Source: Escherichia phage teqhal
Sequence record: MN895435.1
Direction: 5' to 3' (one strand)
DNA: 64,000 nucleotides
The notes beneath the pieces are model-generated. The model did no database searches and was not told the origin of the DNA. It saw only the letters and a program-made list of their open reading frames with translations. Position numbers and translations under genes: made by a program. This document shows, piece by piece, positions 1,399 through 55,009 of this stretch (the stretch's first letter is position 1; every line of letters starts with the position of its first letter).

Positions 1399-1668
1399 AT
1401 GGAAAACTTAATTATCATCGAGCAATCTTTCAACGATTATGGTATGGCTTATGGTTATCGTGCGATAATGGAAGATTCTCGTGGATGTGTTATCGATATT
1501 GCTGAATGTAAAGATTTACTGCAGCTTTTGAAGATTGTTCGCAAAAATTGGGATTGTGAAAACATTAAAGCTCGTGTTGTAACGGAAGAAGAAACTGTTT
1601 TTCATGATGTAAAATTTGCCAAAGATGCTGCTACTCTTCTGAAACGCATCGCTCCACTGTTCAATTAA
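1399..1668 (+). CDS. hypothetical protein, 89 aa
   Basis: ATG preceded by conserved GGAGAATAAA leader (track start 1387 is a TTG inside the RBS). Confidence 0.5.
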   Translation: MENLIIIEQSFNDYGMAYGYRAIMEDSRGCVIDIAECKDLLQLLKIVRKNWDCENIKARVVTEEETVFHDVKFAKDAATLLKRIAPLFN

Positions 1669-3153: not shown

Positions 3154-3204
3154 GCTTTATGATTACCGGAGTATAATATTCCCGAAACCAAACGAGGATA
3201 AGTG

Positions 3205-5022
3205 ATGATTAAGAATGAAATTAAAATTCTGAGCGATATTGAACATATCAAAAAGCGTAGTGGCATGTACATTGGCTCTTCTGCTAATGAAATGCATGAG
3301 CGCTTTCTGTTTGGTAAATGGGAAAGTGTTCAGTATGTACCTGGTCTTGTTAAGCTTATTGATGAAATTATCGATAACTCAGTCGATGAAGGTATTCGTA
3401 CTAAGTTTAAATTCGCGAATAAAATTAATGTTACCATTAAAAATAATCAGGTAACAGTTGAAGATAACGGTCGCGGTATTCCACAAGCGATGGTTAAAAC
3501 ACCTACCGGTGAAGAAATTCCTGGTCCAGTTGCTGCTTGGACTATTCCAAAAGCGGGTGGTAACTTCGGTGATGATAAAGAACGCGTCACTGGCGGTATG
3601 AATGGTGTTGGTTCTAGTTTAACTAACATTTTTTCTGTGATGTTTGTCGGAGAAACTGGCGACGGTCAAAATAATATTGTAGTTCGTTGTTCAAACGGCA
3701 TGGAAAATAAATCATGGGAAGATATTCCTGGAAAATGGAAAGGAACCCGTGTTACTTTCATTCCTGATTTTATGTCATTTGAAACTAATGAGCTGTCCCA
3801 AGTTTATCTTGACATTACACTAGATCGTCTCCAGACACTTGCTGTTGTTTATCCTGATATTCAATTTACCTTTAATGGTAAAAAGGTTCAGGGCAATTTT
3901 AAGAAATATGCACGCCAATATGATGAGCATGCTATTGTTCAAGAACAAGAAAATTGTTCTATTGCGGTTGGTCGTTCACCGGATGGTTTTCGTCAATTAA
4001 CTTATGTGAATAACATCCACACTAAGAATGGTGGCCATCACATTGACTGTGTTATGGATGATATTTGTGAAGACCTTATTCCACAAATCAAACGTAAGTT
4101 CAAAATTGATGTAACTAAAGCACGTGTCAAAGAATGTTTGACTATCGTTATGTTTGTTCGTGATATGAAAAACATGCGATTTGATTCTCAAACTAAAGAG
4201 CGTTTGACTTCTCCATTTGGCGAAATTCGTAGTCATATTCAGCTTGATGCTAAAAAGATTTCACGCGCTATTTTAAACAATGAAGCGATTTTGATGCCAA
4301 TTATTGAAGCTGCGTTGGCTCGTAAATTGGCGGCAGAAAAAGCAGCAGAAACTAAAGCAGCTAAAAAGGCTTCTAAAGCTAAGGTTCATAAACATATCAA
4401 AGCGAATCTTTGTGGTAAAGATGCTGATACTACTCTTTTCTTGACTGAGGGTGATTCGGCTATCGGATATCTTATTGATGTTCGTGATAAAGAACTTCAT
4501 GGTGGTTATCCATTGCGTGGTAAAGTTCTCAACAGTTGGGGTATGTCATATGCTGATATGCTTAAAAACAAAGAACTGTTTGATATTTGCGCAATCACTG
4601 GATTAGTTCTCGGTGAAAAAGCTGAAAACTTGAATTATCATAATATTGCTATTATGACTGATGCTGACCATGATGGTCTAGGAAGCATTTATCCTTCTCT
4701 GCTCGGGTTTTTTAGTAATTGGCCAGAATTGTTTGAGCAAGGACGAATTCGCTTTGTCAAAACTCCTGTAATCATCGCTCAGGTCGGTAAAAAACAAGAA
4801 TGGTTTTATACAGTCGCTGAATATGAGAGTGCTAAAGATGCTCTACCTAAACATAGCATCCGTTATATTAAGGGACTTGGCTCTTTGGAAAAATCTGAAT
4901 ATCGTGAGATGATTCAAAATCCGGTATATGATGTTGTTAAACTTCCTGAGAACTGGAAAGAGCTTTTTGAAATGCTCATGGGAGATAATGCTGACCTTCG
5001 TAAAGAATGGATGAGCCAGTAG
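3205..5022 (+). CDS. 39: DNA topoisomerase II large (ATPase) subunit, single-chain 39+60 type
   Basis: 605 aa from ATG at 3205 (track start 3202 is GTG); N-terminus MIKNEIKILSDIEHIKKRSGMYIGS is GyrB/gp39-like; continuous ORF with no bypass element. Confidence 0.9.
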   Translation: MIKNEIKILSDIEHIKKRSGMYIGSSANEMHERFLFGKWESVQYVPGLVKLIDEIIDNSVDEGIRTKFKFANKINVTIKNNQVTVEDNGRGIPQAMVKTPTGEEIPGPVAAWTIPKAGGNFGDDKERVTGGMNGVGSSLTNIFSVMFVGETGDGQNNIVVRCSNGMENKSWEDIPGKWKGTRVTFIPDFMSFETNELSQVYLDITLDRLQTLAVVYPDIQFTFNGKKVQGNFKKYARQYDEHAIVQEQENCSIAVGRSPDGFRQLTYVNNIHTKNGGHHIDCVMDDICEDLIPQIKRKFKIDVTKARVKECLTIVMFVRDMKNMRFDSQTKERLTSPFGEIRSHIQLDAKKISRAILNNEAILMPIIEAALARKLAAEKAAETKAAKKASKAKVHKHIKANLCGKDADTTLFLTEGDSAIGYLIDVRDKELHGGYPLRGKVLNSWGMSYADMLKNKELFDICAITGLVLGEKAENLNYHNIAIMTDADHDGLGSIYPSLLGFFSNWPELFEQGRIRFVKTPVIIAQVGKKQEWFYTVAEYESAKDALPKHSIRYIKGLGSLEKSEYREMIQNPVYDVVKLPENWKELFEMLMGDNADLRKEWMSQ

Positions 5023-10305: not shown

Positions 10306-10521
10306 ATGAAAATTTTTAAAGATGTAAAAGTTGGTGAAATTTTTTGTTTAGATAATGGTGATCAGTTAATTCGCATTTCACCTCTTAAGAGCACTAGCGA
10401 AAAAATGACAGTTAATGCTACTTTAGCAAACAATAGTAATGAACGTTTCTGTATTGAAAATGATACTGAAACTTATACCGTAGAAGAGTTTTGGGAATTG
10501 AGCGTCGACTGCGACGATTAA
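10306..10521 (+). CDS. hypothetical protein, 71 aa
   Basis: ORF with GAGGTGAATTATG RBS. Confidence 0.5.
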   Translation: MKIFKDVKVGEIFCLDNGDQLIRISPLKSTSEKMTVNATLANNSNERFCIENDTETYTVEEFWELSVDCDD

Positions 10522-10581
10522 TTTAATGGCCGCGTGTATTCATGCGGCCTTGGAGTAGAAAATAATTTAGAGGAAATTAAT

Positions 10582-11040
10582 ATGAAATATATGACTGTTA
10601 CTGATCTAAATGATGCAGGCGCTACTGTTATTGGTACAATCAAGGGTGGTGAATGGTTTTTAGGAACTCCGCATAAAGATATTTTATCTAAACCTGGATT
10701 TTACTTTTTAGTAAGTAAATTAGATGGTCGTCCATTTAGTAATCCATGTGTGTCTGCACGATTTTATGTAGGTAATCAGCGTTCTAAGCAAGGATTCAGT
10801 GCAGTTCTAAGTCATATTCGTCAACGTCGGTCTCAGCTTGCACGTACTATTGCAAATAACAATATGGTATACACAGTATTTTATCTGCCTGCTTCTAAGA
10901 TGAAACCTCTGACGACAGGATTTGGTAAAGGTCAGTTAGCTTTGGCGTTTACCCGTAATCATCATTCCGAGTATCAAACACTTGAAGAAATGAACCGTAT
11001 GTTGGCTGATAACTTTAAATTCGTTTTGCAGGCATATTAA
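10582..11040 (+). CDS. ndd: nucleoid disruption protein
   Basis: 152 aa from ATG at 10582 with AGGAAA RBS (track start 10534 is GTG); sequence [26 protein letters not shown] matches recalled T4 Ndd; followed by stp and ac as in T4. Confidence 0.8.
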
Positions 11041-11120
11041 TGAGTAATTTCCACAACGAACACGTGATGCAGTTCTATCGTAATAATCTTAAAACTAAAG
11101 GCGTCTTCGGACGCCAGTGA
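11040..11120 (+). CDS. stp: Stp peptide (26 aa; modulates the host EcoprrI/PrrC anticodon-nuclease system)
   Basis: [26 protein letters not shown]; ATG overlaps the ndd stop (TAATG); not in ORF track because under 60 aa. Confidence 0.8.
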
Positions 11121-11127
11121 GGAAAAT

Positions 11128-11286
11128 ATGAATATTGCAAAATTATTAGGAGTTATTTCATTTATTTGTTGGATAGTAGCATGTGTTTTAACTATCTGTA
11201 TCGATGCTAGCAGTGTGTTTTCGCAAGCTTTAGCTCAGGGTATGTGTGCATATTTAACATTTGTGTTGTTATCTACTAATGATTAA
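11128..11286 (+). CDS. ac: acriflavine-resistance small membrane protein
   Basis: 52 aa hydrophobic, Cys-rich peptide (T4 Ac is about 51 aa) in the T4 position between stp and gene 52. Confidence 0.6.
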   Translation: MNIAKLLGVISFICWIVACVLTICIDASSVFSQALAQGMCAYLTFVLLSTND

Positions 11287-11419
11287 GAAAATCTTGGGCT
11301 ATTCATTAGCCCTTGCTACTTTATTAGTAGCACTATATTATGGAGTAATGTTCGGATTGATTCAAGTCGTGCTTTTCATTTCTGATGTTATTATGGCACT
11401 ACATTCACTAGTATGGTAA
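11279..11419 (+). CDS. small membrane peptide, 46 aa (52.1-like position)
   Basis: Overlaps ac stop; hydrophobic. Confidence 0.3.
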   Translation: MIKKILGYSLALATLLVALYYGVMFGLIQVVLFISDVIMALHSLVW

Positions 11420-11423
11420 ATTT

Positions 11424-12752
11424 ATGCAACTGAATAATCGCGATTTAAAAAGTATCATTGATAATGAAGCATTGGCTTATGCTATGTACACGGTTGAAAA
11501 TCGTGCTATTCCAAATATGATTGATGGATTTAAGCCAGTTCAACGATTTGTTATTGCTCGAGCTCTTGATTTGGCACGAGGAAATAAAGATAAGTTTCAC
11601 AAACTTGCTTCTATTGCAGGTGGTGTAGCGGACCTTGGATATCACCATGGTGAAAACTCTGCACAAGATGCAGGGGCTTTGATGGCTAATACTTGGAATA
11701 ATAACTTTCCTTTGTTAGATGGTCAAGGAAACTTCGGTTCTCGTACTGTCCAAAAGGCAGCAGCTAGTCGTTATATTTTTGCTCGTGTAAGTAAAAATTT
11801 CTATAACGTATATAAAGATACTGAATATGCTCCAGTACATCAAGATAAAGAACACATTCCGCCTGCTTTCTATTTGCCTATTATTCCTACTGTTCTTCTT
11901 AATGGTGTTTCCGGTATTGCAACTGGTTATGCAACTTACATTCTTCCTCATAGTGTTTCTTCTGTCAAGAAAGCTGTACTGCAAGCTCTTCAAGGAAAGA
12001 AAGTAACTAAACCGAAGGTAGAATTCCCAGAATTTCGTGGTGAAGTCGTTGAGATTGATGGGCAATATGAAATTCGTGGAACATACAAGTTTACTTCACG
12101 AACTCAAATGCATATCACTGAGATTCCGTATAAGTATGATCGTGAAACTTATGTGAGTAAAATCTTAGACCCACTTGAAGATAAAGGCTTCATTACGTGG
12201 GATGATGCTTGTGGTGAGCATGGCTTTGGCTTTAAAGTTAAATTCCGTAAAGAATATTCTTTGAGCGATAATGAAGAAGAACGCCATGCAAAAATTATGA
12301 AAGACTTCGGGTTGATTGAGCGTCGTTCCCAAAATATTACCGTTATTAATGAGAAAGGAAAGCTACAAGTTTACGATAACGTAGTTGATTTAATCAAAGA
12401 CTTCGTTGAAGTTCGTAAAACTTATGTCCAAAAACGAATTGATAACAAAATCAAAGAAACTGAATCAGCATTTCGTTTAGCCTTTGCCAAGGCGCATTTC
12501 ATTAAGAAAGTAATTTCAGGTGAAATTGTTGTACAGGGTAAAACTCGTAAAGAACTGACCGAAGAACTTTCTAAAATTGAGATGTATTCTTCTTATGTTG
12601 ATAAACTAGTTGGAATGAATATTTTTCATATGACTTCTGATGAAGCAAAGAAACTTGCTGAAGAAGCTAAAGCTAAAAAAGAAGAAAACGAATATTGGAA
12701 AACTACTGATGTAGTTACAGAATACACTAAAGATTTAGAGGAAATCAAATGA
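11424..12752 (+). CDS. 52: DNA topoisomerase II medium (GyrA-like) subunit
   Basis: 442 aa, the T4 gp52 length; N-terminal region AYAMYTVENRAIPNMIDGFKPVQRFVIARAL is the type II topoisomerase A-subunit motif. Confidence 0.9.
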   Translation: MQLNNRDLKSIIDNEALAYAMYTVENRAIPNMIDGFKPVQRFVIARALDLARGNKDKFHKLASIAGGVADLGYHHGENSAQDAGALMANTWNNNFPLLDGQGNFGSRTVQKAAASRYIFARVSKNFYNVYKDTEYAPVHQDKEHIPPAFYLPIIPTVLLNGVSGIATGYATYILPHSVSSVKKAVLQALQGKKVTKPKVEFPEFRGEVVEIDGQYEIRGTYKFTSRTQMHITEIPYKYDRETYVSKILDPLEDKGFITWDDACGEHGFGFKVKFRKEYSLSDNEEERHAKIMKDFGLIERRSQNITVINEKGKLQVYDNVVDLIKDFVEVRKTYVQKRIDNKIKETESAFRLAFAKAHFIKKVISGEIVVQGKTRKELTEELSKIEMYSSYVDKLVGMNIFHMTSDEAKKLAEEAKAKKEENEYWKTTDVVTEYTKDLEEIK

Positions 12753-32656: not shown

Positions 32657-33517
32657 ATGAAACAATACCAAGATTTAATTAAAGACATTTTTGAAAATGG
32701 CTATGAAACCGATGACCGAACGGGCACAGGAACAATTGCTCTGTTCGGTACTAAATTGCGTTGGGATTTAACCAAAGGTTTTCCTGCAGTAACAACTAAG
32801 AAGCTCGCCTGGAATGCATGCATTGCTGAGCTAATATGGTTTTTATCAGGAAGCACAAATGTTAATGATTTACGATTAATTCAACACGATTCGTTAATCC
32901 AAGGCAAAACAGTTTGGGATGAAAATTACGAAAATCAGGCAAAAGATTTAGGATACCATAGCGGTGAACTTGGTCCAATTTATGGAAAACAGTGGCGTGA
33001 TTTTGGCGGTGTAGACCAAATTATAGAAGTTGTTGATCGTATTAAAAAACTGCCAAATGATAGGCGTCAAATTGTTTCTGCGTGGAATCCAGCTGAACTT
33101 AAATATATGGCATTACCTCCTTGTCATATGTTCTATCAGTTTAATGTGCGTAATGGCTATTTAGATTTGCAGTGGTATCAACGTTCGGTAGATGTTTTCC
33201 TCGGTCTTCCATTTAATATTGCATCATATGCTACGTTAGTTCATATTGTAGCTAAGATGTGTAATCTTATTCCGGGAGATTTGATATTTTCTGGTGGTAA
33301 TACTCATATCTATATGAATCACGTAGAACAATGTAAAGAAATTTTGCGTCGTGAACCTATGGATTTATGCGAATTACAATTAAAATTTCCAGATGAATTT
33401 GATGAATGGGACACAGAATCGCAGGTATTTTGGTTGAGTCAATTTGCAAAGCCTCATAATTTTGTTCTTAACAACTATGTATCTCATCTGCCAATTAAAG
33501 GAAAAATGGCGGTATAA
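32657..33517 (+). CDS. td: thymidylate synthase, uninterrupted
   Basis: 286 aa continuous ORF; thymidylate synthase active-site region MALPPCHMFYQFNV. Confidence 0.9.
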   Translation: MKQYQDLIKDIFENGYETDDRTGTGTIALFGTKLRWDLTKGFPAVTTKKLAWNACIAELIWFLSGSTNVNDLRLIQHDSLIQGKTVWDENYENQAKDLGYHSGELGPIYGKQWRDFGGVDQIIEVVDRIKKLPNDRRQIVSAWNPAELKYMALPPCHMFYQFNVRNGYLDLQWYQRSVDVFLGLPFNIASYATLVHIVAKMCNLIPGDLIFSGGNTHIYMNHVEQCKEILRREPMDLCELQLKFPDEFDEWDTESQVFWLSQFAKPHNFVLNNYVSHLPIKGKMAV

Positions 33518-36390: not shown

Positions 36391-37569
36391 ATGAGCACAG
36401 TTTTTAATACAAATCCAGTTGATGTTTTAAAAGAACCTATGTTTTTTGGTTCAGGTCTTGGTATTGCGCGTTATGATATTCAACGCCATAAAGTTTTTGA
36501 AGATTTAACCGAAAAGCAATTATCATTTTTCTGGCGTCCTGAAGAAGTAAACTTAATGATGGATGCTGCACAGTTTAATAAGATTCCTCAGTATCAGCAA
36601 AATATTTTTACTAATAATCTGAAGTATCAATCACTTTTGGATAGCATTCAGGGTCGTGCGCCGTCTGCTGTACTTATGTCATTAATTTCAGACCCAAGCC
36701 TTGATACATGGGTTGCTACGTGGACTTTTAGTGAAACTATTCACTCTCGTTCATATACACATATCATGCGAAATCTTTATACTGATCCATCGAAGGTATT
36801 TGATGAGATTGTATTAGATGAAGCTATTATGAAACGTGCTGAATCCATTGGACGTTATTATGATGATGTTCTGACTAAAACTCGTTATTGGGAAAACGCT
36901 AAAGCTGATATCGAATACCAAAAAGAAATTAATGCAGACGAAGATGTTATTGAAGATGCTATTGAGCATGAGACATATTGGAAGCGTGAGCTAATGAAAT
37001 CTCTTTACCTCTGTTTGCATGTAATCAACGCATTGGAAGCTATTCGTTTTTATGTATCTTTCGCATGTACCTTTAACTTCCATAAGAACATGGAAATTAT
37101 GGAAGGCAATGCAAAGATTATGAAGTTCATTGCACGTGATGAGCAGCTTCATCTTAAAGGTACACAATATATTATTCGTCAACTTCAATCTGGTACTGAT
37201 GGCGATGAATGGGTTAAAATTGCTCAAGAGTGTGAACAAGAAGCAGTTGATATTTTCATGGAAGTTAACCGCCAAGAAAAAGATTGGGCAGTTCATTTAT
37301 TTAAAGATGGCGATGTTCCTGGATTAAATACAAATAGCATGTGGAGCTTTATTGATTACTTAACTGTATCTCGTATGAAACAGTGTGGTCTTCCATGCCC
37401 AATTACCGATGCTCCGGTTAAACATCCATATCCTTGGATTCGTGAATATCTTAATTCTGATAATGTTCAATCCGCGCCACAAGAAGTAGAACTGTCATCT
37501 TATCTTGTTGCACAGATTGATAATGATGTTGATGATAAAGTTATGATGAGTTTTAAAAAATACTTTTAA
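36391..37569 (+). CDS. nrdB: ribonucleoside-diphosphate reductase small subunit, uninterrupted
   Basis: 392 aa continuous ORF; R2-like di-iron ligand spacing. Confidence 0.9.
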   Translation: MSTVFNTNPVDVLKEPMFFGSGLGIARYDIQRHKVFEDLTEKQLSFFWRPEEVNLMMDAAQFNKIPQYQQNIFTNNLKYQSLLDSIQGRAPSAVLMSLISDPSLDTWVATWTFSETIHSRSYTHIMRNLYTDPSKVFDEIVLDEAIMKRAESIGRYYDDVLTKTRYWENAKADIEYQKEINADEDVIEDAIEHETYWKRELMKSLYLCLHVINALEAIRFYVSFACTFNFHKNMEIMEGNAKIMKFIARDEQLHLKGTQYIIRQLQSGTDGDEWVKIAQECEQEAVDIFMEVNRQEKDWAVHLFKDGDVPGLNTNSMWSFIDYLTVSRMKQCGLPCPITDAPVKHPYPWIREYLNSDNVQSAPQEVELSSYLVAQIDNDVDDKVMMSFKKYF

Positions 37570-37596: not shown

Positions 37597-39184
<1,588 letters not shown>

Positions 39185-40616: not shown

Positions 40617-41841
<1,225 letters not shown>

Positions 41842-41842
<1 letters not shown>

Positions 41843-50818: not shown

Positions 50819-50854
50819 AATTTTATAAATAGAATAAACACTAGAGAGGATATG

Positions 50855-52948
50855 ATGGAACTCATTACAGAATTATTTGACGAAGATACTACTCTTCCGA
50901 TTACAAACTTAAATCCAAAGAAGAAAATACCACAAATTTTTTCAGTTCACGTTGATGATGCAATTGAACAACCAGGCTTTCGTTTATGTACCTATACATC
51001 TGGAGGTGATACTAATCGCGATTTAAAGATGGGCGATAAAATGATGCATATTGTTCCTTTTACATTAACTGCTAAAGGTTCAATTGCTAAATTGAAAGGT
51101 CTTGGTCCAAGCCCAATTAATTATATCAATTCAGTTTTTACTGTTGCAATGCAAACAATGCGTCAGTATAAAATTGATGCCTGTATGCTCCGTATTCTTA
51201 AGTCTAAAACTGCTGGTCAAGCTCGACAAATTCAAGTTATTGCTGATAGACTTATCCGTAGTCGTTCAGGTGGAAGATACGTCCTTCTTAAGGAACTCTG
51301 GGATTATGATAAAAAGTATGCATATATTCTTATACATCGCAAAAATGTATCACTAGAAGACATTCCAGGAGTTCCGGAAATTAGTACCGAGCTCTTTACT
51401 AAGGTTGAATCGAAGGTCGGTGATGTTTATATCAATAAAGATACTGGAGCTCAAGTAACTAAAAATGAGGCAATTGCAGCATCTATTGCACAAGAAAATG
51501 ATAAACGTTCTGACCAAGCTGTAATCGTTAAAGTTAAAATTTCCCGTAGAGCAATTGCACAAAGTCAGTCATTGGAATCTTCTAGATTTGAAAGTGAATT
51601 ATTCCAGAAGTATGAATCTACCGCAGCTAATTTCAATAAACCTGCTACTGCTCCTTTAATTCCCGAAGCAGAAGAAATGAAGCTTGGAATTAATTCATTA
51701 GCTTCTAAAACTAAGGCAGCAAAAATTATTGCCGAAGGAACTGCGAATGAACTTCACTATGACTATAAATTCTTTTCAAAAAGTGAGGTTAATGAAGTTT
51801 CCGAAAAAATTAAAGATGTAATTCTTAATGCGATCAAAAATGAACCAACTACTTCAATAAAATGTTTAGAGAAATACGCAGCAGCTGTCAATCAATTCTT
51901 TGAAAAATATAAAGATAATTGGCTTGATAAACATAATAAAACTCGTAAAGGGCAGCCAGATGAAGTCTGGGAAGAAATAACTAAAAATTCCTGGAACGCA
52001 GCAAAAACTAAATTCCTCAAACGAATGATTTATAGTTTTTCTGGAATTGGTGCAGGCCCAATGATTGATATTACTATTGCCCGCGATGGTTCTAAATATA
52101 CTCCATCACAAAAGCGTGGCATTAGAGAATATTGCGGTTCAGGATATACTGACATCAATAATCTTCTTTTAGGTCGTTACAATCCAGAACGATATGATGT
52201 AATGAGTGAAAAAGAAATTGAATCTGCTATAAATAATTTAGATTCAGCTTTTGAAAATGGTGACCGTATACCAGAAGGCATTACAGTTTATCGTGCTCAA
52301 AGCATGACTGCTCCTATATACGAAGCACTAGTTAAAAATAAAGTGTTCTATTTCAGAAATTTTGTATCTACTTCTTTAACTCCTATCATTTTTGGACGTT
52401 TTGGAATTACACATGCTGGTATTGGTCTTTTAGAACCAGAAGCTCGTAACGAATTAACGGTTGATAAAAATGAAGAAGGAATAACTATTAATCCAAACGA
52501 AATAAGAGCGTATAAAGAAAATCCTGAATACGTTAAAGTTCAAATAGGATGGGCAATTGATGGAGCTCATAAAGTTAATGTTGTATATCCAGGAAGTCTC
52601 GGAATAGCAACAGAAGCTGAAGTTATTCTACCGCGCGGATTGATGGTTAAAGTTAATAAAATAACTGATGCTTCTAATAATGACGGAACCACGTCTAATA
52701 ATACAAAACTCATTCAAGCTGAAGTTATGACCACAGAAGAACTCACCGAATCGGTAATCTATGACGGAGACCATTTAATGGAAACCGGCGAAGTAGTTGC
52801 AATGACAGGTGATATTGAAATAGAAGACAGAGTTGACTTTGCATCATTTGTTTCATCAAATGTTAAACAGAAAGTAGAATCATCTCTTGGAATTATTGCG
52901 TCTTGCATAGATATTACAAACATGCCTTACAAGTTCGTTCAAGGATAA
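50855..52948 (+). CDS. Alt-family ADP-ribosyltransferase, paralog 1
   Basis: 697 aa; candidate R-S-E motifs (VYRAQ, FVSTSL, EAEVILPRG); N-terminal MELITELFDE leader; N- and C-termini near-identical to the downstream paralog. Confidence 0.8.
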   Translation: MELITELFDEDTTLPITNLNPKKKIPQIFSVHVDDAIEQPGFRLCTYTSGGDTNRDLKMGDKMMHIVPFTLTAKGSIAKLKGLGPSPINYINSVFTVAMQTMRQYKIDACMLRILKSKTAGQARQIQVIADRLIRSRSGGRYVLLKELWDYDKKYAYILIHRKNVSLEDIPGVPEISTELFTKVESKVGDVYINKDTGAQVTKNEAIAASIAQENDKRSDQAVIVKVKISRRAIAQSQSLESSRFESELFQKYESTAANFNKPATAPLIPEAEEMKLGINSLASKTKAAKIIAEGTANELHYDYKFFSKSEVNEVSEKIKDVILNAIKNEPTTSIKCLEKYAAAVNQFFEKYKDNWLDKHNKTRKGQPDEVWEEITKNSWNAAKTKFLKRMIYSFSGIGAGPMIDITIARDGSKYTPSQKRGIREYCGSGYTDINNLLLGRYNPERYDVMSEKEIESAINNLDSAFENGDRIPEGITVYRAQSMTAPIYEALVKNKVFYFRNFVSTSLTPIIFGRFGITHAGIGLLEPEARNELTVDKNEEGITINPNEIRAYKENPEYVKVQIGWAIDGAHKVNVVYPGSLGIATEAEVILPRGLMVKVNKITDASNNDGTTSNNTKLIQAEVMTTEELTESVIYDGDHLMETGEVVAMTGDIEIEDRVDFASFVSSNVKQKVESSLGIIASCIDITNMPYKFVQG

Positions 52949-52951
52949 ATC

Positions 52952-55009
52952 ATGGAACTTATTACAGAATTATTTGACGGCGCTTCGGCGCCGGTTGTTA
53001 ACTTAAATCCTAAGCATAAAATACCACAAATTTTTGCTATTCAAGCCGGCGAAGAAAGTGTGCTTCCTGGATTTAGATTTTGTACATACACCTCTGGCGG
53101 TGATACAAATAAAAACGTTAAGCCAGGCGATAAAATGATGCATATCGTAATGATAGGCGTCAACGAGAAATTATCGCTGGTTAAGCTTAGAAACTTGGGT
53201 GGAAATCCAATTGGCGTCATTAATGCGGTTTTTGATACTGCTCTTCAAACAATGAAGCAGTATAAAATCGACGCATGCTTATTCCGCGTACTAAAAAGTA
53301 AAACAAATGGCGCAGCTCGTCAAATGCAAGTTATTGCTGACCGTTTAGTACGTACTAAAGGAGCAGGTCGATATGTTCTTTTAAAGGAAATCTGGGATTA
53401 TGATAAAAAGTACGCATATATTATGGTTTACCGTAAAAATGCCAAATTAGAAGACATTCCAGGTGTACCTCCTATTTCAACTGAGTTATTCACAAAAGTT
53501 GAATCAAAGGTTGGTGATGTTTATGTAGACGTTAAAACAGGTAATGCTGTTCCTAAAGCTGTTGCTGTTGCTGCTTCTATTGCTTTAGAAAATGATAAGC
53601 GCACGGATCAAGCTGTTATTCAGAAAACTAAAATTAGTCGTCGATTAGCAGCGCAAGCTCAATATTCTACTGTTGATGCTTCACTTCAGGGTGATAGCTT
53701 CGCTGCTAAGAAATATCAAGAGTTTGAATCTAAAGTTCCGGTATATAAAGCAGAAGGACCAATGAACTCTGGCGTTATTCAGATTGGTTCAAACTTTAGC
53801 AAAGGAGCTATCGGTGGTATGAGAAGTGCTTCTCGTTTTAAATCTAGCGATTATGAACTAGAAAGTTTCCGAAATCATATTGCATTAGCCCATGCACGTT
53901 TACGTGATCCATCTATCAAGTTGCAGAGCGATATAACATATCAAGGTTCTCAAGAATATTTAAAGAATAAAGAATTCTTTGATTATAAAACTGATAAAAT
54001 TTTAAGCGATCTTGCTGATATTAATATTTCTAATAGCTTTGATGTTATTAAGAAAATTATCAATGATTTGGTTAAAGGTTCTAAAGCTACGCCAGATGAA
54101 AAGACAGCTATTATTCAATTTGTCATGAATGGCATTTATAAATTGATTAATGAATCTGCTGCTCAGGCATATGAATACGCAAGCACTGAAGTAACTCCAA
54201 AAGGACTGACTCAGGCTGAGTCTGATGTAATTGAAGATTATTGTGCAGATTCATATGTTGAAATGAACTCGTTCCTTTTGGGTAAACCAGATTCTACCCG
54301 TGAAGAATATATGGAACGAGCTATTAAGCACATTGAGACGTTGGATTCTGCATTCGCTAAAGGTTCAGTTCTTCCTCCAGGAACTACGCTTTATCGTGGA
54401 CAAGAAGTTACCTTTAAAACTTTGCGTCATAACATTGAAAACAAAATGTTCTATTTCAAGAACTTCGTATCGACATCGCTTAAACCAAATATCTTCGGTG
54501 AGCATGGTAAAAACTATATGGCTCTAGATGATTCCGGTGCAGTATTTTCTGGCGAAGGAGAAGGTTCTGTTGATGCAGAAGATTTAATGCATATGGGTAG
54601 TCATTCTGCATATGCTAATGAAGATGCTGAAACTAGCGTAGGTATGGTAATTAAAGGGGCTGAGCGAATCAAAGTTATCGTTCCAGGTCATTTATCAGGA
54701 TTTCCATCAGAAGCTGAAGTTATTCTACCACGTGGAATTTTGTTAAAGATTAATAAAGTAAGCACGTACATGATGAAAGAAACTGCTTATAACAAGTATC
54801 TAATCGAAGGCACAATCGTTCCTCCTTCTGACCAATTAGAAGAATCAGTATATGATGGCGACCATTTAATGGAAACTGGTGAAGTTCGTCCAATGGCTGG
54901 ATTTAATCAATTCCTTGTAGAAGAATCAAAAGAAGAGGAAAACGAAGTTTCTCAAATCTTGGCTTCTTTGGTTAACATCAACGGAATGTCTAAAAAGTTC
55001 AAAATGTAG
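52952..55009 (+). CDS. alt: Alt-family ADP-ribosyltransferase, paralog 2 (685 aa, closest in size to T4 Alt)
   Basis: 685 aa; candidate R-S-E motifs (LYRGQ, FVSTSL, EAEVILPRG); shared MELITELFDG leader; which paralog is the T4 alt orthologue is uncertain. Confidence 0.7.
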   Translation: MELITELFDGASAPVVNLNPKHKIPQIFAIQAGEESVLPGFRFCTYTSGGDTNKNVKPGDKMMHIVMIGVNEKLSLVKLRNLGGNPIGVINAVFDTALQTMKQYKIDACLFRVLKSKTNGAARQMQVIADRLVRTKGAGRYVLLKEIWDYDKKYAYIMVYRKNAKLEDIPGVPPISTELFTKVESKVGDVYVDVKTGNAVPKAVAVAASIALENDKRTDQAVIQKTKISRRLAAQAQYSTVDASLQGDSFAAKKYQEFESKVPVYKAEGPMNSGVIQIGSNFSKGAIGGMRSASRFKSSDYELESFRNHIALAHARLRDPSIKLQSDITYQGSQEYLKNKEFFDYKTDKILSDLADINISNSFDVIKKIINDLVKGSKATPDEKTAIIQFVMNGIYKLINESAAQAYEYASTEVTPKGLTQAESDVIEDYCADSYVEMNSFLLGKPDSTREEYMERAIKHIETLDSAFAKGSVLPPGTTLYRGQEVTFKTLRHNIENKMFYFKNFVSTSLKPNIFGEHGKNYMALDDSGAVFSGEGEGSVDAEDLMHMGSHSAYANEDAETSVGMVIKGAERIKVIVPGHLSGFPSEAEVILPRGILLKINKVSTYMMKETAYNKYLIEGTIVPPSDQLEESVYDGDHLMETGEVRPMAGFNQFLVEESKEEENEVSQILASLVNINGMSKKFKM

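Follow-up and report, generated by a model that had tools for sequence, protein, structure and literature searches.

Orthologues of T4 stp, rnlA and pseT, the phage-side genes of the PrrC story, in a genome segment of Escherichia phage teqhal

The DNA analyzed here (the window; 64,000 nt of sequence record MN895435.1, Escherichia phage teqhal) is a segment of a Tequatrovirus, i.e., a T4-like coliphage, and is collinear with T4. The phage very probably holds orthologues of stp, rnlA and pseT that act as in the T4 prr pathway, the activities being transferred from near-identity to the T4 proteins. The three make up the full set of phage genes in the prr story: their products match those of T4 in sequence, their frames are intact, the catalytic residues are retained, and the gene order is T4-like. 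The first-pass annotation had called the three a complete tRNA cut-and-repair countermeasure set, with all genes intact. Presence and integrity of the three phage-side genes stood (rnlA and pseT have no internal stops and are 369/374 and 288/301 identical to T4), but the name did not: Stp triggers the cut and Pnkp and Rnl1 alone are the countermeasure, the cutting is done by host PrrC, which is not encoded in the window, and the three genes lie 27–30 kb apart and form no module. Table 1 lists the features discussed below, together with the phages whose Stp-like peptides were compared.

Table 1. Features of the window around stp, rnlA and pseT, and Stp-like peptides in other phages (for the latter, coordinates refer to the extracted locus)
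Feature or phage	Description	Coordinates	Strand	Basis or context
ndd	Nucleoid disruption protein, 152 aa	10582..11040	+	Pfam PF06591 Phage_T4_Ndd, E=4.9e-94
stp	26-aa type Ic restriction inhibitor / PrrC activator (putative function, by T4 identity)	11040..11120	+	T4 identity; PF08133; phrog_6763
Hairpin	GGCGUC-UUCG-GACGCC, C(UUCG)G tetraloop	11100..11115	+	stp codons 21-25 (GVFGR); minimum-free-energy and centroid folds
rnlA	Gene 63, RNA ligase 1 (Rnl1); predicted broken-tRNA sealing, and tail-fibre attachment catalyst	38060..39184	+	T4 Rnl1 alignment; Pfam; PDB
106-aa ORF	Unknown function	40617-40937	+	phrog_2364; between pseT.1 and pseT
pseT	Pnkp, 5'-kinase / 3'-phosphatase; predicted end healing	40937..41842	+	T4 Pnkp alignment; Pfam; PDB
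K1ind2	Kagunavirus; Stp-like peptide	1501-1578		ORF unannotated
Rtp	Drexlerviridae; Stp-like peptide	495-1575 (stp and its neighbourhood)		
P818	Drexlerviridae; Stp-like peptide MSSHHNEHVMQLYRHNLKSLGRLGK	1501-1578		ORF unannotated
T2	Tequatrovirus; Stp-like peptide variant			
VR7	Gaprivervirus; Stp-like peptide variant			

The identification of stp is carried by its identity to the T4 gene. The frame opens with an ATG at 11040-11042, closes with a TGA at 11118-11120 after 26 codons, and has one base in common with the ndd stop codon (TAA, 11038-11040; TAATG; the sequence of 11030-11050 is AGGCATATTAATGAGTAATTT). The first-pass annotation was exact in the coordinates and the 26-aa length, and right that the start overlaps the ndd stop, the shared base being 11040. 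The alignment to T4 Stp that it had proposed as a check gave 26 of 26 identical amino acids (NP_049878). At the nucleotide level, 79 of 81 positions are identical to T4 (NC_000866 165505-165585), and both differences are synonymous (His5 CAC vs CAT, Asn15 AAT vs AAC; nothing else). The peptide matches the whole of the Pfam family PF08133 (Nuclease_act, ‘Anticodon nuclease activator family’; E=2e-21, 75.3 bits with a cutoff of 25, profile positions 1-26 of 26) as well as PHROG 6763 (‘activator of host PrrC lysyl-tRNA endonuclease’; E=4e-21). Its neighbours are ndd and ac, gene 52 follows downstream, and the T-even order ndd-stp-ac-52.1-52 is kept.

A tblastn search gave Stp-like matches in 817 phage records, with identity of 99% or more in 422 of these, and the homologues extend beyond the T-even phages. 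The conserved N-terminal core of 18 residues is present in the window peptide. Over these first 18 codons, window stp and its K1ind2 counterpart differ at nine, of which nine are synonymous and none is non-synonymous, which argues for strong selection on the Stp peptide. This synonymous-only core coincides with the published functional part of T4 Stp: the activity resides in the N-terminal 18 residues, suppressor mutations are concentrated at residues 4-14, and loss of the eight C-terminal codons reduces activity only moderately (PMC3014915). In Rtp, stp lies two genes downstream of a gene for a 179-aa ‘polynucleotide kinase’.

The Shine-Dalgarno sequence of stp is weak (GCAGG, 6-10 nt upstream). 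Taken together with the overlap with the ndd stop, this makes translational coupling to ndd the probable route of expression, and stp is likely translated by coupling to ndd termination; ndd itself is context for this coupling and is outside the tRNA pathway. The remark in the first-pass annotation that stp is easy to miss is borne out by deposited records. RefSeq record NC_054922.1, which is 100% identical to the window over 10500-11500, has no CDS for stp and labels window positions 11100-11115 a ‘putative transcriptional terminator’, and an Stp-type annotation is found in 6 of 60 records among the Stp-like matches listed (817 in total). In the BASEL phage TadeuszReichstein, the same ORF is annotated as ‘type IC restriction inhibitor Stp’. 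The practical value of the finding is thus in annotation, as many T4-like genomes on deposit lack an stp annotation, a RefSeq record identical at the locus among them.

The rnlA gene encodes a protein of 374 aa, without internal stops, that is 99% identical to T4 Rnl1 and 100% identical to the Rnl1 of phage PE37. The five substitutions relative to T4 (R141Q, E148K, V181I, T200V and I217V) include none at a catalytic position, and there are no differences after residue 217, so residues 218-374 are identical to T4. Both domains are recognized by Pfam (PF09511, E=3e-25; PF20819 T4_Rnl1_C, E=1.7e-39, residues 253-374), and the match to PDB 2c5u has E=1.7e-253. All essential residues, a list that reportedly comes from mutagenesis in the Shuman laboratory, are present (R54, K75, F77, K99 in the KEDG of motif I, G102, K119, E159, E227, G228, K240 and K242); work from the same laboratory is said to show that the C-terminal domain of T4 Rnl1 confers tRNA specificity. 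We infer that the window Rnl1 would perform ATP-dependent sealing of 3'-OH and 5'-phosphate tRNA ends. A good Shine-Dalgarno sequence (AAGAGG) is found about 8 nt upstream of the ATG. A GTG at 38024 (386 aa) was considered as an alternative start and rejected, 38060 being preferred by the T4 alignment and this Shine-Dalgarno sequence.

The pseT product (301 aa, no internal stops) is 96% identical to T4 Pnkp, and its match to PDB 1ltq has E=1.2e-201. Pfam finds both the kinase (PF13671, E=1.9e-22) and the phosphatase (PF25109 HAD_PNKP, E=3.1e-59). The N-terminal P-loop kinase residues K15, S16, D35, R38 and R126 are present, and the C-terminal DxDxT acylphosphatase has D165 as nucleophile and D167 as acid-base, plus S211, K258 and D278; R176, R213 and D254 are also retained. 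Roles have been described for K15, D35, R126, D165, D167, S211, K258 and D278 (PMC3592404). By its likeness to T4 Pnkp, the window protein is predicted to heal RNA ends bearing 2',3'-cyclic phosphate and 5'-OH. There are two consecutive in-frame ATGs at 40934-40939 (ATGATG); the T4 annotation corresponds to the second (301 aa) and the ORF call to the first (302 aa, MMKK...), and we prefer 40937 over 40934 as the putative start, by T4 alignment only. The ORF upstream of pseT ends in a stop codon that overlaps the pseT ATG (TGATG). This 106-aa ORF has no Pfam match; it is found in many other Tequatrovirus genomes and is unannotated in at least one RefSeq record (Kha5h).

The gene order of the window (rIIA/rIIB ... 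ndd-stp-ac-52 ... tail fibres ... td-nrdA-nrdB-denA-rnlA-alc-pseT ... 30) is that of the T4 map on the opposite strand. Unrelated genes fill the 27 kb from stp to rnlA and the 30 kb from stp to pseT, and between rnlA and pseT are alc, two spanin genes, pseT.1 and the one extra ORF. For the kilobase 10500-11500, 550 T4-like records matched in total, among them Escherichia phages vB_EcoM_KAW1E185 and vB_Eco_NR1 with 100% identity. At its two ends (first and last 25 kb) the window is collinear with Tequatrovirus genomes at 95-97.5% identity per 25-kb stretch, and no whole-window match was found among the deposited records searched (the best 25-kb matches have 97.5%). A fully identical ndd-52 kilobase beside 97.5% for the best 25-kb matches is ordinary T-even mosaicism.

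ARAGORN and Rfam (at the gathering threshold), run over the whole window, found neither a tRNA-Lys decoy of the phage nor any known structured RNA, and Rfam detected no group I introns anywhere in it. The ORFs of td (32657-33517, 286 aa) and nrdB (36391-37569, 392 aa) are both uninterrupted. With no Rfam intron match, this means that the td intron and the nrdB intron (with the I-TevIII gene) are absent here; T4 td carries its intron, and the td of this phage is without it. The large subunit of topoisomerase II is a single ORF of 606 aa (3202-5022, + strand). In T4 this subunit is encoded by two genes, 39 and 60, the latter translated with a bypass, and the gene 60 bypass cassette seems to be absent from the window, as judged by ORF length and match annotations only. 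Two adjacent long ORFs of 698 and 685 aa (50852-52948 and 52952-55009, + strand) occupy the position where, in related phages (phiD1 and the slur phages), a tandem pair of Alt-like RNA polymerase ADP-ribosyltransferases is annotated.

The circuit of Stp, PrrC, Pnkp and Rnl1 has counted among the classics of T4 genetics since the 1980s-90s, and its occurrence in the window is already known T4 biology, so three genes near-identical to their T4 prototypes carry little weight as a discovery. The T4 mechanism has been described (PMC3014915, PMC3400036, PMC12707154), and by transfer from T4 we propose the following course. Stp would be made early in infection, probably by re-initiation on TAATG of ribosomes terminating at ndd, and would act on the type Ic restriction enzyme of the host (EcoprrI, and EcoR124I too) to block DNA restriction; T4 Stp relieves restriction by these two enzymes and not by EcoKI and EcoBI (PMC3014915). 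In the rare hosts with prrC in a type Ic locus, this inhibition would unmask the latent PrrC. PrrC is the host tRNA-Lys anticodon nuclease, the prr locus comprises the EcoprrI type Ic restriction-modification system and PrrC, and Stp is thought to target the Hsd complex that holds PrrC latent (PMC3014915). That T4 Stp inhibits EcoprrI and thereby activates PrrC is published (PMC3014915; PMC12707154), and the statement in the first-pass annotation that Stp interacts with the EcoprrI/PrrC system agrees with this T4 literature. With its Asp165/Asp167 phosphatase domain Pnkp would then take off the cyclic phosphate, with its P-loop kinase domain it would phosphorylate the 5'-OH, and Rnl1 would reseal the anticodon loop through a Lys99-AMP intermediate, so that translation and infection may go on; for T4, healing of the cut tRNA ends by Pnkp and sealing by Rnl1 are documented (PMC3014915, PMC3592404, PMC3400036). 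Stp would thus serve anti-restriction and be exploited by the host as an alarm, with Pnkp and Rnl1 as the true countermeasure.

Strains with prr are described as ‘some E. coli hospital strains’ (PMC3014915), and since prr+ hosts are rare, the pathway is expected to be idle in most infections. Also in the window are alc and denA, whose products act on DNA that contains cytosine, and their presence implies T4-type modified DNA. DNA modified in this way largely escapes type I restriction. This counts against a clear gain from anti-restriction by Stp. A 2025 review calls the mode of EcoprrI inhibition by Stp ‘unknown’ (PMC12707154), and a PDB search with Stp returned no matching chain even at E<=10; cataloguing natural variants of the peptide is therefore mildly useful.

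One could read stp, rnlA and pseT as a single dedicated, co-selected countermeasure module in which Stp itself aids resistance to tRNA cleavage, as the three genes are intact in one genome and are reported to be delayed-early in T4 (PMC3014915). We find this very unlikely: stp was defined by mutations that suppress the lethality of pseT and rnlA mutants on prr+ hosts (PMC3014915), and because loss of stp rescues such mutants, Stp provokes the cut and does not counter it. The distances between the genes (27 and 30 kb) speak against a module as well, and so do the Stp homologues in siphoviruses of ~42-49 kb (K1ind2, Rtp and P818). No Rnl1 from such small phages is found among the matches listed (1871 records), and the ‘polynucleotide kinase’ of Rtp aligns only to the phosphatase half of Pnkp (29% identity, residues 163-297). 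With Stp in small siphoviruses and none of these among the listed Rnl1 matches, Stp appears to travel independently of the repair pair, which supports the view that it may be selected for anti-restriction independently of Pnkp and Rnl1. At the level of the locus itself, the 26-codon ORF might be no gene at all, with the hairpin as the functional element of 11040-11120 (a terminator or an RNA-stability element). NC_054922.1, with its terminator label and no CDS, agrees with this, the hairpin is stable, with a perfect stem that persists from the minimum-free-energy to the centroid fold, and chance short ORFs are abundant: the 2.5-kb stretch around stp has 33 ORFs of at least 20 aa, so a 26-codon ORF alone is no proof of a gene. 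The peptide, however, is identical to the T4 Stp that was characterized genetically and biochemically (PMC3014915), and the nine synonymous and zero non-synonymous codon changes against the K1ind2 core are those of a coding sequence under selection. K1ind2 and Rtp keep the GVFG residues without the hairpin, so the conservation is at the protein level. As a + strand terminator the hairpin was rejected, since no T-run follows it and the GAGG ribosome-binding site of ac begins 4 nt downstream; the terminator-like match at this position is on the - strand, where the region has no gene. In addition, the 126-nt region as a whole folds no better than shuffled sequence (z = -1.06). That the locus holds a hairpin and no gene is therefore extremely improbable.

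Compatible with the preferred explanation, in which the three genes act as in the T4 prr pathway, is the idea that the phage retains Pnkp and Rnl1 chiefly for functions other than defence against PrrC (RNA repair after other host ribotoxins, 5'-phosphorylation of RegB-cut mRNA feeding RNase E/G decay, and attachment of tail fibres by gp63), the prr contest being an occasional use. We regard this as possible, if doubtful. In the T4 annotation and in PHROG 562, Rnl1 goes under the name ‘RNA ligase and tail fiber protein attachment catalyst’, homologues of it turn up in 1871 phage records, whose hosts are many and extend well past E. coli, and prr+ hosts are rare (PMC3014915). Against it, the residues of Rnl1 that are unchanged from T4 (218-374) take in the whole C-terminal domain (PF20819), and the T4 literature gives pseT and rnlA mutants a single clear phenotype, their restriction on prr+ hosts (PMC3014915).

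Two modest possibilities are put forward jointly and tentatively: that Stp is a horizontally mobile, generic anti-type-Ic peptide, and that the end codons of stp double as the hairpin. Three coliphage groups that are unrelated to each other (Straboviridae, Kagunavirus K1ind2, and Drexlerviridae Rtp and P818) share a nearly unchanged 18-residue core. If Stp is indeed mobile, small Stp phages without Rnl1 are predicted to be naturally excluded by prrC+ hosts. The hairpin is identical in T4, VR7 keeps the stem with a UUUG loop, and it is absent in T2, K1ind2 and Rtp in a comparison of these sequences. A role of the hairpin, in which it might stabilize the upstream mRNA or tune ac translation, would account for GVFGR codons that are nucleotide-identical in T4 and this phage and for the stem kept in VR7.

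Set beside the T4 system, the window shows both differences and common features. At the pseT locus, pseT.1 directly abuts pseT in T4 and the 106-aa ORF is absent, whereas in this phage the ORF lies between them; the T4 annotation has an nrdB intron with the I-TevIII gene, which this phage lacks. Relative to T4 Pnkp (PDB 1ltq) there are 13 substitutions, which form a cluster around residues 193-218, in the phosphatase domain; the length of 301 aa, the kinase P-loop and the DxDxT phosphatase residues are retained. T4 Rnl1 (gp63; PDB 2c5u and 5tt6) is matched in its 374 aa, both domains and the essential residues, and rnlA has denA upstream and alc downstream, the placement that it has in T4. For stp, both phages share its place between ndd and ac, an embedded CUUCGG hairpin and the overlap with ndd at TAATG. 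The T4 partner of these three genes is the E. coli prr locus, which is a host locus and not expected in a phage window.
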